A DNA stretch of 42,569 bases from Candidatus Methanoxibalbensis ujae (GTDB lineage Archaea > Halobacteriota > Syntropharchaeia > Alkanophagales > Methanospirareceae), in the NCBI GenBank assembly GCA_026134085.1, contig JAOQIN010000013.1, forward strand, positions 1 to 42,569. The letters run 5' to 3'. Positions 13,055-28,776 of this stretch are shown here, one piece after another; position 1 is the first letter of the stretch; every line of letters starts with the position of its first letter. The position numbers and the translations under genes were made by a program. Under the pieces are notes generated by a model. It saw nothing but the letters and a program-made list of their open reading frames with translations, did not search any database and was not told the DNA's origin.

Positions 13055-14386
13055 TCAAATAAAATGCAATATTGTATCAAATATCTGACTGAACACATGA
13101 TGTATATCCACATTAAGCACATTTAAAACGACGAAAAAACCTATAAAGCTGCCTATCATGCTGCCTATATTCGCGAGTGCAGCTACAAGAATCACTCTGA
13201 ACATTTTATTGTTCATCAAATCGCTGAATTTTTCAGCTTTAAACATTTTTTTTAAATCTTCAGCGCTTGGTTTTCTGATTTTCGCCTCCTCTATGCCTGC
13301 GAACCATCCAGCCGCTATCAGAGGATTGAGGGAGGTCAGCCATGCGACAGCGAACGCTACAACTCCCGAAAGAGGATGTCCCCTTGCTATCATCACGCCA
13401 GCGCATGAAAGAGAGCCGTTTATCAAAAACCACCAGAAAAGAGCGGTGAGGAATGTGTGAACGGGCACTCCTGAAAAAATGCAGCCTATGACAAGCAGCA
13501 GAGCAACTGAAATCAGCCCTGCACCGAGAAGAAAGTTCAGCGAGAACATTTTTTTTGCCGGAAGCCTGCAGAGCTCGGATATATCTGGCAGTGTATGAGG
13601 ATTCCTCAGATATTTCAGAATACCTTCTCTGTGACCTGCACCGACTACTGCAACGATCTTTCCCGAGCTGCGCTCATCGGTGAGGGATGTGGGCGATGAT
13701 GTCCGGTGTGCTGTTGGTGCTATGCTTTTTAATGATTTTGCGAGTGATATGAGTTTTGCTGCGATATACGCATCACGCTCGTCAAGCAGTGCTGCTGCGG
13801 CACCCGGAGAGAATTTCCTGAACTCCATAAGCAGTTGCGTGACGACATCCTCATCGGTCAGCTTATCAAGCGAGCCATCTGTCAGCATTCTGCTGCTGTC
13901 TTTATGATCTTCATCATTTTTCAGTTTTCGCATGCTGAATATTGCTGATATAAGAGAAAAAAGCATTTTCACCTTCTCAAAGAAACGCATCTTATTCCAG
14001 AATCTTTGCATTGTTATCTGTATTGGACGATCAACAAGTGCGAAAGGAATTCCCTTTTTTTCTGCCTTTTCTATCGCAGCCATCATATCAGCGCCGGGCT
14101 CCACACCGAGTTCACTGCCCATTCTCCGCTGTATGTAAGCGAGCAGCCACTGTGTGAGCAGCAGGAATGGATTTCCGCCGCTCAGCGCATCTTTTACGGA
14201 GAAGTCCTCATAAATTTCGCCTTTCAGCGCTCTGTATCTGTGCTCACACAGCTCAACTGCGATTATATCCGGATTTTCACGCTCAATTACTTCCTCCACT
14301 TCCCTGACGCTTTTCTCAAGTATGTGTCCTGTGCCCACTAATATGATCTCCACGCCGTTCACTGAGACCTTTCTCACACTTTCCAT
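13055..14386 (-). CDS. TraB/PrgY/GumN family protein
   Basis: LVGTGH, AVELC..R, PGADM, LVDRPIQIT, DERD and VVGAGH motifs, followed by C-terminal TM helices. Confidence 0.9.
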   Translation of the reverse strand: MESVRKVSVNGVEIILVGTGHILEKSVREVEEVIERENPDIIAVELCEHRYRALKGEIYEDFSVKDALSGGNPFLLLTQWLLAYIQRRMGSELGVEPGADMMAAIEKAEKKGIPFALVDRPIQITMQRFWNKMRFFEKVKMLFSLISAIFSMRKLKNDEDHKDSSRMLTDGSLDKLTDEDVVTQLLMEFRKFSPGAAAALLDERDAYIAAKLISLAKSLKSIAPTAHRTSSPTSLTDERSSGKIVAVVGAGHREGILKYLRNPHTLPDISELCRLPAKKMFSLNFLLGAGLISVALLLVIGCIFSGVPVHTFLTALFWWFLINGSLSCAGVMIARGHPLSGVVAFAVAWLTSLNPLIAAGWFAGIEEAKIRKPSAEDLKKMFKAEKFSDLMNNKMFRVILVAALANIGSMIGSFIGFFVVLNVLNVDIHHVFSQIFDTILHFI

Positions 14387-14417: not shown

Positions 14418-15503
14418 TCACTTATACCTGAGGATAGCTGCAATGCCTCTGAAAGCACGCTCAAGCTGAGCACCCTCCTCAAAATCCGAAGAGATGAGTA
14501 TGACCTCAGTTCCCTTCTCAGCTGCGAGCTCGGCAAGCATGTTTATCCTATCAGCAGGCAGATTTTCAGAGAGCAGCAACACATCAACAGCACCCTCACT
14601 CAGCTTCTTCTTCACCTCTTCCTCACCATACGAAACAAGATCAGGATCATTTACAAGCAGCTTCATGAATCTCTCCATAATCCTTTTCTCCTTTATCAGA
14701 TCAAGACCCTCAAGCACATCTTCAGCCTTGTCAACAAGCTCATAAAGACCGGATTCATCTGTGTAAGCAACATCAAAAACCCCTATTATCCTGCGACGAA
14801 GCTCATAATGAAGATAATCTCCGCTCAGAAATTCCTCCTTGGTCGGGCTGGGCCCTCCTATCAGAATGCCTTTGAGGTCCTTCACCGGAAGAAGTATTTC
14901 CGTTGCATGCTTTCCGATGCGCTGATAGAACTCATCAATCGCTATTTCTCGCAGCCTCTGAAATCGTGGTGCTGACTGCCCCCCTTTCTTGTGTTTGCCG
15001 GGGACAGATGAAGTTATGTGCCTCTGTGGCTCTATCCTCTTTCCTCTGAGTATGCCTATGGTCGCCTCTCTCTTGTCAAGCACGATCAGTCCAAATGTCT
15101 CTTTCTCCTCAATCATGTCCTCAAGCGGGCTGAGAAGGAACGATGAGTCGCAGTGATATATGTAGGATGGTATTTTCTCAGGCGGCTCAACGATGTATGT
15201 CTCTATTTCCGTCTTGTCGCCTCCTTTCGCCACTGCTCCACAGAATATGACGACGCCTTTTTCCCCTATGTGAATATATCGCAGCTTTGACAGTATTGAC
15301 TCAAGTGCTGAATGCACATTTTTGCGTGTTGACTTGCTCTTTATGTTCATTGCCTGCCCCTGCTCAGCTCTAAGATGCGCCATAACATCTGAAATGTCTC
15401 TGTCTGGCGGTATATACACTGATATCAGCTCCGTTCCCCTGCCACTTTTCTTTCGCAGTTCGTCAAGCAGTCGCTTGAACTCCCTCTTCCTCAGTGGATC
15501 CAT
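14418..15503 (-). CDS. prf1: Peptide chain release factor aRF1
   Basis: GRGTELIS.YIPP, NIKS, YHCDS.F, GGQS..RF and GIAAILRY motifs. Start set at MDPLRKREFK (15503), which matches typical aRF1 N-termini. Confidence 0.95.
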   Translation of the reverse strand: MDPLRKREFKRLLDELRKKSGRGTELISVYIPPDRDISDVMAHLRAEQGQAMNIKSKSTRKNVHSALESILSKLRYIHIGEKGVVIFCGAVAKGGDKTEIETYIVEPPEKIPSYIYHCDSSFLLSPLEDMIEEKETFGLIVLDKREATIGILRGKRIEPQRHITSSVPGKHKKGGQSAPRFQRLREIAIDEFYQRIGKHATEILLPVKDLKGILIGGPSPTKEEFLSGDYLHYELRRRIIGVFDVAYTDESGLYELVDKAEDVLEGLDLIKEKRIMERFMKLLVNDPDLVSYGEEEVKKKLSEGAVDVLLLSENLPADRINMLAELAAEKGTEVILISSDFEEGAQLERAFRGIAAILRYK

Positions 15504-15505
15504 AA

Positions 15506-15576
15506 TGCGGCAACCGGGATTCGAACCCGGGCTGCGGGCTTGGGGGGCCCGCGTCATACCGCTAGACCATTGCCGC
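15506..15576 (-). tRNA. tRNA-Gly(CCC), no encoded CCA, atypical C33
   Basis: Cloverleaf: acceptor GCGGCAA/TTGCCGC plus A73, D-arm GTCTAGCGGTATGAC, anticodon stem CGGGC/GCCCG with loop CCCCCAA, 4-nt variable loop, T-arm CCGGG-TTCGAAT-CCCGG. Confidence 0.92.
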
Positions 15577-15843
15577 ACGATATCTGCTCTCAAATTCCTC
15601 AAAATCCGACTTCAAAGCAGATGCTGCGGAAATCAGCACATCAATCACATCAGTTTCATCATCTCTCAACTTCACAAAAAGCACGGGATCGCTCAATATC
15701 GGATGTTTCATGTTGTATGTCGCCATCTCAACACGCTCATCCTCAAGAAGCTTCGCAACTAACGGCACCAAAAATGTGTGCGTCTCCCCTTTTATCTCGA
15801 GCTTTATCATCCCTTTCCCGCGCTCCAACACCTTAAGATGCAT
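15562..15843 (-). CDS. rpoL: DNA-directed RNA polymerase subunit L (Rpo11)
   Basis: EIKGETHTF...L.ED..V..ATY.MKHP...P.LFVK motif, located downstream of csl4. Its stop codon lies inside the tRNA-Gly gene. Confidence 0.92.
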   Translation of the reverse strand: MHLKVLERGKGMIKLEIKGETHTFLVPLVAKLLEDERVEMATYNMKHPILSDPVLFVKLRDDETDVIDVLISAASALKSDFEEFESRYRAAMV

Positions 15844-15942
15844 CCTTCCTCTCACCTCATCCTCCTCTCTCCGCTCACCTCATCCTTCTCTCTCTGCGAA
15901 CCCGGCGCATTATTTTTCATTTGTTCATACTTCATTCAAACC

Positions 15943-16506
15943 TCAAACAGGATAATAATCCTCAGACAATTTTCTGAGCTCTATTCTACCACACTCATCG
16001 CAGACAAGCACATTTCCCTTTCTTCTCAATACCCCTCTGCATGAAGAGCACACCGCTTTTATCACACCGAGTTTCGGTTCAGCTGTGCTCAATCGCAGCG
16101 CCTTCGCATCTATGACACGTGCCTTCACAATATCCAATATTCCGAACTCCTGCTTCAAATCCTTCACGAACCCACGCTTTATGTTTGATATGTGTATCAC
16201 ACCTGGAAGCGATACTGCAAGATTTCTGTCCTCATGACCCACAATATATGCGATGTTCATGATGACAAGCGACTCCTTTATGTCTTCAACCCTGCCCACC
16301 ACAACATCTCCCCGCTCCGGTATAGGCGGCGTATCAACAACAGGCACAACCTCTATCTCACGCTGCCTGCTGACACGCACCCTCCCTGTGAGCGATGCAT
16401 ATATGTTGCCTTTGTCGTCATATACGCCTCTGCCCGGCGTAAATTCTTCCGTAGTGCCGAGAAAATCTCCAGGAACCACTATCTTTCCCGTCCTCGTAAC
16501 TGCCAT
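15943..16506 (-). CDS. csl4: Exosome complex RNA-binding protein Csl4
   Basis: VVPGDFLGTTEEF.PG.G, S1 domain (IHISNI), LGVIKAVCSSC...CDECG..E.RKLS zinc ribbon. Confidence 0.93.
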   Translation of the reverse strand: MAVTRTGKIVVPGDFLGTTEEFTPGRGVYDDKGNIYASLTGRVRVSRQREIEVVPVVDTPPIPERGDVVVGRVEDIKESLVIMNIAYIVGHEDRNLAVSLPGVIHISNIKRGFVKDLKQEFGILDIVKARVIDAKALRLSTAEPKLGVIKAVCSSCRGVLRRKGNVLVCDECGRIELRKLSEDYYPV

Positions 16507-16814
16507 CTCCTCTCACCTTCCGCGCTCGTCGCGCCACACTCATCGCTTCTCCAACATATTCCTTAGCCCGCATCACATAAAATCGTTATCAGATGCTTTA
16601 AATAAAACTGAAAAATAAGCGGTAACTGATGCGGTGGGAAGCCATTCATCATCAAAGCCATTCATCATCATTTCGAGCAACAGACAGCCACGCTTAACAG
16701 TGAAAACAATGGGATCATGCCGTATCTTAAACGCATTTGAATTACAAAAACAATTATATCTCCGCATTGGAATGATTTGACGGCTTCAAACCCGCTGTGC
16801 GTGGGCATGCAGCA

Positions 16815-17259: not shown

Positions 17260-19791
17260 ATGCACAAAAACGGAGCTGTGGGGGATGAAAGCATAGAGGA
17301 TGATGATCTCCTTGCAGGCATAGATGTTGAGACGACAGAGGAAGTTGATGTGCCCAAGATGCTGATTGATCAGGTGATCGGTCAAGACCACGCTGTTGAG
17401 GTCATAAAGAAAGCAGCGAAGCAGCGCAGGCATGTCCTTCTCATAGGAACGCCGGGAACAGGGAAGTCAATGCTCGCGAGGAGCATGGCCGAGCTCCTGC
17501 CGCATGAGGAACTTCAGGACATACTTGTGTATCCAAATCCAGAGGACAAGAACAACCCGAAGATAAGAGTTGTGCCGGCCGGGAAGGGCAAAGAGATCGT
17601 TGAAATGCACCGTATGGAGGCGAGAAAGCGAATTCAAGCGCGCAATTCTTTCATGTTTTTCCTGTTTATAATGCTGCTCGCGATAGGTGTCATACTTGCA
17701 TTCAGATATGACAAGCCAGAATACATATTCTGGGCACTCATCGCAGCACTCGTGCTGTTCCTGCTTGCTCGCTGGTCAATGCCGAAGGAAGAACATCTCA
17801 TACCCAAGCTGCTCGTTTCAAACGCCGGAAAGGAGACCGCTCCTTTCGTTGATGCGACAGGTGCCCACTCAGGTGCTCTCCTTGGAGATGTTCGTCATGA
17901 CCCCTATCAGTGCATCATAGGCTCCATGAGAATTCAAACGGCAGACGGAAGGAAGGTGGAGATAAGCGAGATCGTTGATCCGCTGTTGAAGGGCGATGGT
18001 GAGAGGGAGCTCTCAGATGATGAGGTGTTTGAGGTGCTCGGCGGCTGCGAGCTGGGATTCTGCGTCACGAAAGTGAGGAGGGTTTTCAAGAGATATTTCT
18101 GTGGTGATGTGTTTGAGATAAAGACGGGACAAGGTCACAGGATAATCGTGACGGGTAATCATCCGGTAGCTGTTTTTGACGGAAAACACCTGCGATACAA
18201 ACTCGCTGAGGAACTCAGCACCCATGACATATGCGTTGTGCTGCATTATGCTGATGATTCCCGTGCATTTCAGCGTCATTTCAGGAGTTTCATGGATTTC
18301 AGGAGTTTCATGAGGTCTCTCTCCTCTGCTGTTCTGTTTCAGGCGGATGAAGGAGAGGCGGCAGCGCATGCTGTTGTGGGCGGATATGAGTATGATGAGA
18401 TAACAAGTGTGAGGCGTGTTCATTATGAGGGTTATGTCTACAATCTCACGACAGAGACGGGCAACTACATTGTTGAGAACATATTGACCCACAATTCGGG
18501 CGGATTGGAGACTCCCGCGCACGAGCGAGTTGAGGCAGGTGCGATACACAAGGCGCACAAGGGCGTGCTCTTCATAGATGAAGTCAACATGCTTCGCCCT
18601 GAGATGCAGCAGGCTCTTCTCACAGCGATGCAGGAGAAGGAGTTCCCGATAACCGGACAATCAGAGAGAAGTGCGGGCGCAATGGTGAAAACAGACCCTG
18701 TGCCGTGCGATTTCATAATGGTCGCCGCCGGAAATCTCGATGCAGTCACGGGAATGCATCCCGCACTCCGCTCTCGCATAAAAGGCTACGGCTACGAGAT
18801 ATACATGCATGACACGATGGAAGACACCCTTGAAAACCGCAGAAAGCTTGTGAGATTCATCGCGCAGGAGGTGAAGAGAGACGGTAAAATACCTCACTTT
18901 GACCGCTCAGGCATCCGTGAAATACTGAGAGAGGCGAGGAGAAGAACAGGGAGAAGAGGACATCTCACACTCATACTCCGTGATCTCGGTGGTCTCGTTC
19001 GCGTTGCGGGCGACATCGCACGTGCTGAAAACGCAAAATATGTCACGGCGGAGCATGTCATCCGTGCGAAGGAAATGGCACGCAGCATTGAACAGCAGGT
19101 GGCTGATGAATTCCTTGAGAAAAAGAGGGAATACAAGCTCTTCAGAACAGAAGGATACGAGATTGGGCGCGTGAACGGTCTTGCAATAGTCGGTGATTCG
19201 GGCATCGTGCTCCCCATAATCGCTGAAGTTACACCTGCACAGTCAAAAAATGAAGGAAAAGTTATCGCAACAGGCAGACTTCAGGAAATAGCGAGAGAAG
19301 CAGTTCAAAATGTCAGCGCAGTTTTTAAAAAACTGACGGGAAAAAATCTATCCAACAGGGACATCCATATTCAGTTCATAGGCACATATGAGGGAATAGA
19401 AGGAGATTCAGCAAGCATATCAATCGCAACCGCTGTCATCTCAGCAATTGAGAACATCCCGGTTGATCAGAGTGTCGCGATGACAGGATCGCTCTCAGTG
19501 CGGGGAGATGTGCTCCCTGTGGGAGGAGTTACACAGAAAATAGAGGCGGCAGCACAAGCTGGAATTAAAAAGGTGCTCATACCTCAGGCAAATATAAAAG
19601 ATGTGCTCATAGAAGACAGATATAAAGACAAAATTGAGATTGTTCCGGTCTCAACAATAGAGGATGTGCTTGAGCTCTCTCTCGTGGGAAGGAAAAAGAA
19701 GAAGTTCATTGACAGAGTGAGAAGTGCAACTGCCGAGGTCGCTCAGATATTGGATGGTGTTGTTGAAAAAACTGTCAAAAACGGCGCCTGA
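17260..19791 (+). CDS. lonB: Membrane-anchored ATP-dependent protease LonB (intein-containing precursor)
   Basis: DQVIGQDHAV, Walker A GTPGTGKS, two TM helices, Walker B LFIDE, catalytic GDSAS and KIEAA. The true start may be GTG at 17278. Confidence 0.95.
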   Translation: MHKNGAVGDESIEDDDLLAGIDVETTEEVDVPKMLIDQVIGQDHAVEVIKKAAKQRRHVLLIGTPGTGKSMLARSMAELLPHEELQDILVYPNPEDKNNPKIRVVPAGKGKEIVEMHRMEARKRIQARNSFMFFLFIMLLAIGVILAFRYDKPEYIFWALIAALVLFLLARWSMPKEEHLIPKLLVSNAGKETAPFVDATGAHSGALLGDVRHDPYQCIIGSMRIQTADGRKVEISEIVDPLLKGDGERELSDDEVFEVLGGCELGFCVTKVRRVFKRYFCGDVFEIKTGQGHRIIVTGNHPVAVFDGKHLRYKLAEELSTHDICVVLHYADDSRAFQRHFRSFMDFRSFMRSLSSAVLFQADEGEAAAHAVVGGYEYDEITSVRRVHYEGYVYNLTTETGNYIVENILTHNSGGLETPAHERVEAGAIHKAHKGVLFIDEVNMLRPEMQQALLTAMQEKEFPITGQSERSAGAMVKTDPVPCDFIMVAAGNLDAVTGMHPALRSRIKGYGYEIYMHDTMEDTLENRRKLVRFIAQEVKRDGKIPHFDRSGIREILREARRRTGRRGHLTLILRDLGGLVRVAGDIARAENAKYVTAEHVIRAKEMARSIEQQVADEFLEKKREYKLFRTEGYEIGRVNGLAIVGDSGIVLPIIAEVTPAQSKNEGKVIATGRLQEIAREAVQNVSAVFKKLTGKNLSNRDIHIQFIGTYEGIEGDSASISIATAVISAIENIPVDQSVAMTGSLSVRGDVLPVGGVTQKIEAAAQAGIKKVLIPQANIKDVLIEDRYKDKIEIVPVSTIEDVLELSLVGRKKKKFIDRVRSATAEVAQILDGVVEKTVKNGA
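17911..18495 (+). mobile_element. Mini-intein (195 aa, no homing endonuclease) in LonB
   Basis: Inserted at VRHDPYQ|C...THN|SGGL. Has Cys1, block B VTGNHPV, block F VYNLT, C-terminal His-Asn and +1 Ser. No LAGLIDADG motifs seen. Confidence 0.93.
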
Positions 19792-28674: not shown

Positions 28675-28776
28675 TGCGGGGGGCGTGATTTGAACACGCG
28701 AACCCCTACGGGACAGGGTATCTCAGCACACAGTGCTCCTAAGCCCTGCGCCTTTTCCATGCTCGGCAACCCCCGC
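28675..28776 (-). tRNA. tRNA-Leu(TAG) with an 18-nt canonical (37/38) intron at 28720-28737
   Basis: Acceptor GCGGGGG/CCCCCGC plus A, long variable arm, T-loop TTCAAAT. Intron AGCACTGTGTGCTGAGAT forms a bulge-helix-bulge (CUUA/UGAG central helix, GCAC/GUGC outer helix). Confidence 0.95.

Follow-up and report, generated by a model that had tools for sequence, protein, structure and literature searches.

A family-wide overlap of the archaeal rpoL gene with tRNA-Gly(CCC), upstream of the release-factor gene

In mitochondria, mRNA stop codons can be completed by the addition of A residues, and tRNA punctuation is said to have been the subject of a 1981 study by Ojala; in haloarchaea, a tRNA-Leu sits in the S9 operon. 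Overlaps between protein-coding and tRNA genes are known from bacteria, where the available text of a survey of 2031 genomes (Hudson, Lau and Williams 2014, PMC4131195) reports 250 upstream same-strand CDS–t(m)RNA overlaps, including the Helicobacter FtsW/RodA gene with tRNA-Ile and Carsonella smpB-ssrA, proposes that same-strand overlaps give non-stop mRNAs (about 1 mRNA in 15,000) and already offers a feedback reading of smpB-ssrA. In E. coli, the secG mRNA decays in <30 s after RNase P cuts the secG-leuU transcript (Mohanty and Kushner, PMC2241853, from the accessible part), and haloarchaeal RNase P and tRNase Z are described, in the portion at hand, as excising tRNA-like elements from composite transcripts (PMC4946936). 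Other archaeal tRNA–mRNA arrangements, as far as the accessible sections go, are tRNA-Lys in the 5′-UTR of TK0306 and tRNA-Arg/snoRNA in T. kodakarensis (PMC4247193), and processed mRNAs are described in Methanolobus (PMC5499594). The literature within our scope, which left out most subscription journals and supplements, held no report of the junction described here or of leaderless archaeal mRNAs made by tRNase Z.

We analysed a 42,569-nt stretch of DNA (the window) from Candidatus Methanoxibalbensis ujae (GCA_026134085.1, contig JAOQIN010000013.1; G000 in our comparisons), whose assembly is 89% complete. The minus strand carries, in this order, csl4, rpoL, tRNA-Gly(CCC), prf1 (encoding the release factor aRF1) and traB (Table 1). 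The rpoL start codon is preceded by a Shine–Dalgarno (SD)-like GAGGTGA, with a GTG at 15855 as an alternative start; the gene matches Pfam PF13656 above cut-off and an NCBIfam model at E 8e-24, which is under that model's cut-off. The prf1 gene is the sole copy found, the genome's one other match being pelota. The organism belongs to a family of methane-cycling archaea and appears to be ANME-1-type: the best solved match of its single McrA is 3SQG (194 bits vs 130 bits for the next), which we take to be the ANME-1 enzyme.

Table 1. Features of the csl4–traB region, in coordinates of the window
Feature	Position	Strand	Basis or remark
TATA-box candidate of the operon, ~90 nt upstream of csl4	16597..16604	-	9.4 bits; putative function
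csl4, exosome RNA-binding subunit	15943..16506	-	NF034126, 201 bits, above cut-off
rpoL (Rpo11, RNA polymerase subunit L), 93 aa	15562..15843	-	ATG 15843
Dual-coding 15 nt, RpoL A-A-M-V-stop = tRNA nt 1-15	15562..15576	-	sequence
tRNA-Gly(CCC), without encoded CCA	15506..15576	-	Rfam RF00005 63.8 bits, ARAGORN
D-arm ATG, aRF1 frame	15555..15557	-	probably incidental
Anticodon loop, C32-C33 instead of U33	15540..15546	-	sequence comparison
2-nt trailer TT, N73 to aRF1 start	15504..15505	-	sequence
prf1 (aRF1, archaeal release factor), 361 aa	14418..15503	-	TIGR03676, 513 bits
traB-family gene, downstream neighbour conserved by synteny	13055..14386	-	TIGR00261

The first-pass annotation of this DNA had placed the rpoL stop inside the tRNA, and the letters at 15576–15562 agree: GCG GCA ATG GTC TAG is both the end of rpoL (A-A-M-V-stop) and the start of the tRNA, with the stop codon forming tRNA nt 13–15. 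The tRNA runs from G1 at 15576 to N73 (A) at 15506; ARAGORN reports 15505–15577, adding one flank base per end, so the expected 3′ end of an RNase P-cut rpoL message is 15577, the position given in that annotation. On the other side N73 is followed by TT and then by the aRF1 ATG (15503), 2 nt past N73 as had been claimed, in a register that matches the family start (MDPLRK vs MDQIKK). Also as described, an ATG in the D-arm (15557), 4 nt after the rpoL stop, is in the aRF1 frame with no stop between; initiation there would give aRF1 an 18-residue N-terminal extension.

The locus has the features by which CDS/tRNA overlaps were recognized in bacteria (PMC4131195, accessible part): a tRNA that is valid by ARAGORN and Rfam, with C33 atypical, and a same-strand, Pfam-positive upstream CDS whose stop lies inside it. 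As in the cases of that study, a real CDS ends in the tRNA, 5′ maturation should remove the stop, and the arrangement is lineage-wide at one tRNA. The available table of that paper is confined to bacteria, whereas the present case is archaeal; the Carsonella extension is apparently random sequence, whereas that of rpoL replaces the end of a conserved RNA polymerase helix; and here, unlike in the cases it describes, the next gene abuts the 3′ end of the tRNA. The E. coli secG-leuU transcript is alike in joining an mRNA to a tRNA and in losing the upstream mRNA upon RNase P cleavage, as would happen here, but the accessible text on it (PMC2241853) describes no stop overlap and no downstream protein gene relying on the 3′ cut. 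The archaeal tRNA–mRNA transcripts share co-transcribed tRNAs and processed 5′-monophosphate mRNAs with our locus, but lack a stop overlap and a 1–2 nt tRNase Z leader in the sections available (PMC4247193, PMC5499594).

The first-pass comparison with mitochondrial tRNA punctuation (PMC3790967, accessible part) holds in that the tRNA abuts its neighbours (+15/+2 here, −1/+1 in the sister family) and that RNase P and RNase Z would release them; it differs in that rpoL loses its stop, which an A tail cannot rebuild. RNase P would cut between two sense codons of rpoL, leaving its last four codons and the stop on the tRNA side, and added A residues would encode Lys; completion of the rpoL stop by A tails is thus ruled out by the sequence. 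The analogy would therefore stand for the downstream gene, and it fails for the upstream one, for which excision would remove the stop, leaving no functional message, instead of maturing it. Abutment on both sides is found here and in both sister-family genomes (G025 and G026), not in 58 other loci, and only a few of this genome's 49 tRNA calls are so placed; punctuation is not its basic mode of processing.

Is the overlap particular to this genome? We found rpoL in 65 of 68 genomes of the order, and the three without a match were left unscored. Within the organism's own family (f1), 61 of 63 genomes (62 of 64 loci) have the rpoL stop at tRNA nt 13–15, an overlap of exactly +15. It is present on both sides of the family's deepest split, which in a quick aRF1 tree rooted on the sister family (f2) separates G000 and G009 from the rest. 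In the two exceptions, RpoL has its own stop, 30 nt (G009) or 24 nt (G048) upstream of the tRNA; the RpoL tail of G048 resembles a decayed duplicate of the tRNA 5′ end, and it looks as if this escape rebuilt the tail from such a copy. The rpoL stop of the two f2 genomes ends 1 nt before G1. The simplest history would be a single gain in the family ancestor followed by two losses. Outside the order, 0 of 61 loci have a tRNA directly after rpoL within the 1.2–1.5 kb inspected downstream, and a phylum-wide junction was accordingly rejected; two of these loci carry tRNA-Gly(CCC) 1.25–1.3 kb past rpoL with one gene between, which hints that the junction may have arisen by loss of an intervening gene. 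To judge from these comparisons, the overlap is real and ancient, and much more conserved than one sequence could reveal.

The protein side of the overlap appears to be under constraint of frame and length. The linker from the conserved RpoL Tyr to G1 spans 1–4 codons and has undergone at least seven independent length changes on the quick tree, all by whole codons, which would occur at ~(1/3)^7 if lengths were random (a rough figure that depends on the quick tree); none of the 64 loci stops in another tRNA frame. RpoL extends 9–10 residues past the conserved Phe in 35 of the 61 sequences from the outgroup and in 54 of the 65 from the order; a tail of six or fewer is seen in 7 of the 61. The commonest outgroup residues are Ala at +7 (25/61) and Val at +8 (18/61), and the tRNA-coded tail, A-A-[I/V/M]-V across the family, matches both. 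RpoL and RpoD are a textbook pair; solved-structure alignments of RpoL stop short of its C-terminus, and in the predicted structure the C-terminal helix spans residues 66–92 (mean pLDDT 92.6) and includes residues 90–92. The tRNA-coded residues thus bring RpoL to normal length and, in the model, end its last helix. The overlap may have been retained because tRNA nt 1–12 supply this last helical turn, and not for regulation of aRF1. The rules of tRNA structure give nt 7–9 an R-T-R codon, always hydrophobic, so the tRNA would have been pre-adapted as an RpoL tail. Two observations set bounds on this argument: the RpoL of G009 ends three residues before the usual overlap form and lacks A-A-x-V, so the tRNA-coded residues are not indispensable, and tRNA nt 1–15 are identical where they are untranslated, so their conservation cannot be credited to the protein.

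The aRF1 side is far more variable. Linkage of the tRNA to aRF1 holds in 61 order loci (the spacer value is missing for 4 of 65), and N73 is separated from the ATG by 2 nt in G000, by 1 nt in each f2 genome and by 21–243 nt in the 58 others. The comparison of relatives that had been suggested at the outset therefore upholds the overlap with rpoL and not the 2-nt spacing, as only 3 of 61 loci have 1–2 nt. On the quick tree the tight aRF1 start may be ancestral or convergent, with two changes either way. Two of the 61 loci, those of G000 and, across a 98-nt spacer, its sister G009, carry the D-arm ATG, which was set aside as a conserved start. An open path in frame from the D-arm to the aRF1 start (+1 to rpoL) exists in 3 of 61 loci, and, counted from G1, the aRF1 ATG falls about equally often in each of the three frames (23/17/21); a +1 shift or read-through into aRF1 was rejected on these grounds.

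To look for promoters, we trained a TATA matrix on the sequences upstream of 48 other tRNAs of this genome. A score of ≥7 is reached by 26 of the 48 training tRNAs, a proportion inflated because this is the training set, and by 6.6% of coding windows. The best site before tRNA-Gly scores 2.4 bits, a value that 41% of random coding windows reach, in line with the earlier observation that no obvious TATA box lies just before the tRNA. Across the order, 1 of 65 loci has a site of ≥7 before the tRNA, and the median best score equals that of coding sequence. The 9.4-bit site before csl4 outscores all others in the scanned segments, which reach from the csl4 upstream region to the start of aRF1; a 7.5-bit site inside rpoL at 15810 is within chance, and the position expected of a leaderless-type aRF1 promoter has a best score of −6.4. 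A motif scan can miss weak promoters, and 22 of the 48 training tRNAs likewise score <7. With a strong TATA candidate only before csl4, the co-transcript proposed in the first-pass annotation gains support, and csl4, rpoL, tRNA-Gly and prf1 would form a single transcript from that site. Since aRF1 has a sole copy and no promoter site of its own here, it would be made from a transcript that contains the tRNA sequence, with no room for an SD motif. In relatives, the tRNA–aRF1 spacer is AT-rich and contains a TATA-like site in 31 of 58, and aRF1 may there have its own promoter, independent of the tRNA.

Scanning the 49 scorable tRNA calls of this genome, with genes checked by Pfam and each junction compared in 30 genomes, uncovered three further junctions: mptA/tRNA-Met, tRNA-Ala/coaBC and tRNA-Lys/rpoH. 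In all, a verified gene starts ≤5 nt from three of the 49 calls, and a verified gene has its end within two of the 49; the count leaves out an apparently non-coding ORF that stops at nt 15 of tRNA-Glu(CUC). The mptA gene (GTP cyclohydrolase family) ends inside tRNA-Met(CAU) in 14 of 22 f1 genomes, with the stop falling at nt 15 (11 genomes), nt 23 (2 genomes) or, here, nt 38, and has its own stop in the other 8; three of the 14 overlaps are in another frame, unlike the 0 of 64 at rpoL. By these counts mptA–tRNA-Met serves as a labile control against the locked rpoL overlap. The coaBC gene starts 2 nt after tRNA-Ala(GGC) in 12 of 22 f1 genomes (2 of 24 rows lack tRNA-Ala) and 4 nt after it here. 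tRNA-Lys(UUU) precedes rpoH in 29 of 31 class genomes (contig ends truncate two class rows), 4 of them with a gap of ≤5 nt. It also does so in 23 of 30 further genomes, 2 of them with a gap of 2 nt; N73-NN-ATG at rpoH is seen in both sister-family genomes. The tRNA junction thus appears to be a habit of the lineage, not peculiar to the release factor. CDS–tRNA overlaps as such are known from bacteria; what is distinctive here is that a tRNA dual-codes an RNA polymerase helix and that 1–2 nt tRNA–ATG junctions recur before essential genes.

The tRNA itself is the sole Gly tRNA with a CCC anticodon among the 50 ARAGORN calls of the 89% complete assembly. Its C32-C33 anticodon loop, which the first-pass annotation does not mention, occurs only in G000, G009, G025 and G026 among 64 complete order loci; U33 is present in all 23 tRNA matches outside the order. 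The carriers of C32-C33 are the four deepest-branching genomes of the quick tree. Use of GGG is low (G/(A+G) 0.25), but that of UCG is as low (0.26), so low GGG is no evidence that C33 weakens decoding. In a separate motif count, matches occurred in 22 of 58 trailers and 2 of 26 tRNA introns, and a link between the introns and the trailer repeat is not shown.

The reading to which we lean, by a little more than even chances, is a locked-in gene overlap within a tRNA-containing operon, with the following processing steps. Transcription–translation coupling occurs in archaea, and ribosomes trailing RNA polymerase would end RpoL at the UAG before the acceptor stem forms, or would melt the stem. 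In folding runs the full context gives the cloverleaf, with acceptor-stem pair probabilities of 0.88–0.98 for six pairs at 37–75 °C, whereas a nascent RNA that stops at tRNA nt 45 cannot form the acceptor stem. Once the tRNA has folded, RNase P would cut at G1 and leave a non-stop csl4–rpoL fragment, to be cleared by rescue of the type in which pelota acts, so that tRNA maturation would set the lifetime of the rpoL message. tRNase Z would then cut after N73 to give UU-AUG, a near-leaderless aRF1 message whose AUG is unpaired in predicted folds, here and, with its own short leader, in the sister family. The genome encodes RNase P RNA, tRNase Z and pelota; the PF08745 query for protein-only RNase P had no match in the 89% complete assembly. 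Both processed products had been predicted in the first-pass annotation and gain support from these genes, the non-stop rpoL fragment because RNase P RNA is present and its cut precedes the stop, and the 2-nt-leader aRF1 mRNA from the tRNase Z gene. A leader of 2 nt falls within the 0–5 nt by which leaderless mRNAs are defined in the part of a study available (PMC4983044), so UU-AUG counts as leaderless; a translated 5′-monophosphate leaderless mRNA in archaea was not reported in the literature covered, which left out most subscription journals. A bolder extension, that tRNA excision is the usual route to translatable messages of essential genes, with tRNase Z products of 1–5 nt leader and 5′-monophosphate being the main mRNA for aRF1 here and in the sister family and for CoaBC and RpoH, and RNase P making the RpoL message short-lived, we hold only tentatively, as falling somewhat short of even chances.

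Several other explanations can be set against this processed overlap. That the junction is an assembly artefact, or the tRNA a dead copy, would fit the presence of C33 where U33 is nearly invariant, but contigs from all of four other studies span the rpoL–tRNA junction, three of the four also bridge the tRNA–aRF1 junction (the fourth has <31 nt on the aRF1 side), and none has an indel at 15500–15580. The assembly deletion feared at the outset is thereby ruled out, and with the conservation across the family, a score of 63.8 bits, the sole CCC copy in the assembly and a C33 common to four deep-branching genomes, we give artefact or decay next to no credence. A less remote alternative, still unlikely, is that a non-canonical promoter within rpoL serves the tRNA, the rpoL message being shielded by ribosomes and rarely cut and the overlap having little effect; mature tRNA, and the aRF1 message here, would then both come from the internal transcript. 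Internal starts are common in archaea, according to the accessible parts of two studies (PMC4247193, PMC4983044), there is the 7.5-bit site at 15810, and the same scan assigns no strong TATA to nearly half of the other tRNAs. Against it, the scores of the 65 order loci sit at the coding median with a single one of ≥7, and even then expression of aRF1 in this genome would depend on a tRNA-led transcript. That aRF1 is instead made without cleavage of the transcript, ribosomes either re-initiating at the D-arm ATG or melting the tRNA, we consider very improbable: the ATG is in frame and open to aRF1 in both G000 and G009, but it is confined to these two of 61 loci, the f2 genomes have no D-arm ATG despite their tight start, the frame match in G009 is expected one time in three by chance across a purine-rich, stop-free spacer, and four other tRNAs here, tRNA-Gly(UCC) and three tRNA-Val, share these D-arm letters.

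The remaining alternatives see regulation in the junction. RF2-like release-factor autoregulation acts at an upstream stop, and the first-pass annotation had proposed a feedback switch, in which low aRF1 slows termination on rpoL, alters folding or excision of the tRNA and hence changes aRF1 synthesis; an RF2-like fusion by +1 shift is a variant. In this genome the tRNA indeed has no stop in the aRF1 frame, which is +1 to that of rpoL, UAG is the genome's rarest stop (78 of 611), and the linkage of tRNA and aRF1 persists in 61 order loci. Yet no element leading from the stop to aRF1 is conserved: the open path exists in 3 of 61 loci, the spacer is 21–243 nt in 58 of 61, and the start frames are scattered; the combination of a conserved stop with a conserved route into the aRF1 frame is missing. 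UAG is imposed by tRNA structure, and mptA ends with UAG too; the GUC before the stop would give no re-pairing after a +1 shift; and like junctions occur at mptA, coaBC and rpoH, genes unrelated to termination. With a 1–2 nt gap in 3 of 61 loci, a D-arm ATG in 2 and an open frame in 3, against an overlap in 62 of 64, the elements of the switch are too rare to account for an overlap that 61 of 63 genomes retain, and we give the proposal only a slight chance. It is also rather improbable that the overlap is a selected control by which the rate of tRNA processing meters the supply of RNA polymerase subunits (rpoL, rpoH). Its retention throughout most of the family and the tRNA-Lys(UUU) before rpoH, in the class and in the further genomes, speak for such control, but the RpoL helix already explains retention, the overlap has been lost twice, no tRNA directly follows rpoL at the 61 loci from outside the order, and the mptA overlap comes and goes.

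The locked-in overlap is a family-wide natural case in which a structured segment of a core RNA polymerase subunit is specified by a tRNA gene, and annotation tools that forbid CDS–tRNA overlap could truncate or drop rpoL or tRNA-Gly(CCC). Because maturation of this tRNA should make a non-stop mRNA of an essential gene, the rpoL junction would be a fixed endogenous substrate for archaeal non-stop rescue, and it offers a test of transcription–translation coupling, since ribosomes should read the stop most easily while the tRNA is still unfolded. Likewise, the recurrence of N73-NN-ATG is a testable case for archaeal translation of tRNase Z products as leaderless mRNAs. If true, these archaea would be a cellular example of mRNA punctuation by tRNAs, with leaderless translation starting on processed 5′ ends.

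Outside the rpoL–tRNA-Gly(CCC)–prf1 locus, a gene and a tRNA also share sequence at an mptA-like GTP cyclohydrolase gene, whose last 38 nt in this genome lie within a tRNA-Met(CAU), with the stop codon in the anticodon loop. Genome comparison recovered this overlap in 14 of the 22 family genomes, with two frames used. A matrix scan detected no TATA box before this tRNA-Met(CAU) in G000, the genome under study (score 1.3 bits). In two relatives, G009 and G007, the mptA match is split into two pieces (loci L160–L163; G009:C7 and G007:C111).

Genes that start just after a tRNA were found at two further loci. Of 22 family genomes, 12 have exactly 2 nt between tRNA-Ala(GGC) and coaBC, a spacing that places the A of the coaBC ATG at tRNA position 76. 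The gap between tRNA-Lys(UUU) and rpoH, 5 nt in G000, is likewise 2 nt in both sister-family genomes, and the linkage itself is also present in 23 of 30 additional genomes from the phylum.

Features of the window and of other contigs of the same genome
Feature	Location	Strand	Remark
C32–C33 replacing U33, tRNA-Gly(CCC)	window 15545–15546	−	sequence comparison
LonB protease gene with intein-like insert	window 17260–19791	+	TIGR01445 over cut-off, residues 218–304
tRNA-Leu(UAG) with intron	window 28675–28776	−	second tRNA call of the window; found only with intron search on
mptA-like GTP cyclohydrolase gene and tRNA-Met(CAU) (L133)	G000:C8 23015–24002	−	gene verified by Pfam
tRNA-Lys(UUU) leading rpoH (L134)	G000:C11 9284–9605	+	5-nt gap
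tRNA-Ala(GGC) before coaBC (L135)	G000:C78 50292–50369	−	coaBC start 4 nt after tRNA
tRNA-like RNA and Ro60/TROVE gene (L285)	G000:C86 11346–13057	+	PF05731 and PF25045 for gene

At the main locus, the C32–C33 of tRNA-Gly(CCC) is common only to G000, G009, G025 and G026. An intron follows the anticodon at 26 of 64 loci (L004, L005, L009, L031, L064 and others), ranging from 31 to 125 nt in length, and counting on the tree gave at least 12 gains or losses. Many of these introns are AT-rich hairpins with an appearance similar to that of the sequence 3′ of the tRNA. The downstream aRF1 (window 14418–15503, minus strand) has around 361 residues in the order versus around 415 in other families, with about 45 residues missing near the C-terminus; its match in the relative G008 falls into two pieces (L031, G008:C1). 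Another relative, G041, carries two rpoL–tRNA loci on separate contigs (L032 and L033), both with the overlap, a doubling that possibly reflects bin contamination.

The tRNA-Leu(UAG) of the window is absent from the Rfam list at the gathering threshold. In the tRNA-like RNA lying directly 5′ of the Ro60/TROVE gene, a long insert takes the place of the anticodon arm; the Rfam match of this RNA is to tRNA only (43 bits), and the RNA resembles bacterial YrlA-type Y RNAs. Finally, G000 contains two identical copies of tRNA-Arg(UCU) 5 kb apart (C7 15390–15465 and 20516–20590) and two near-identical copies of tRNA-Lys(CUU) (C8 10530 and C18 2437), and these paired copies are possible integration sites.
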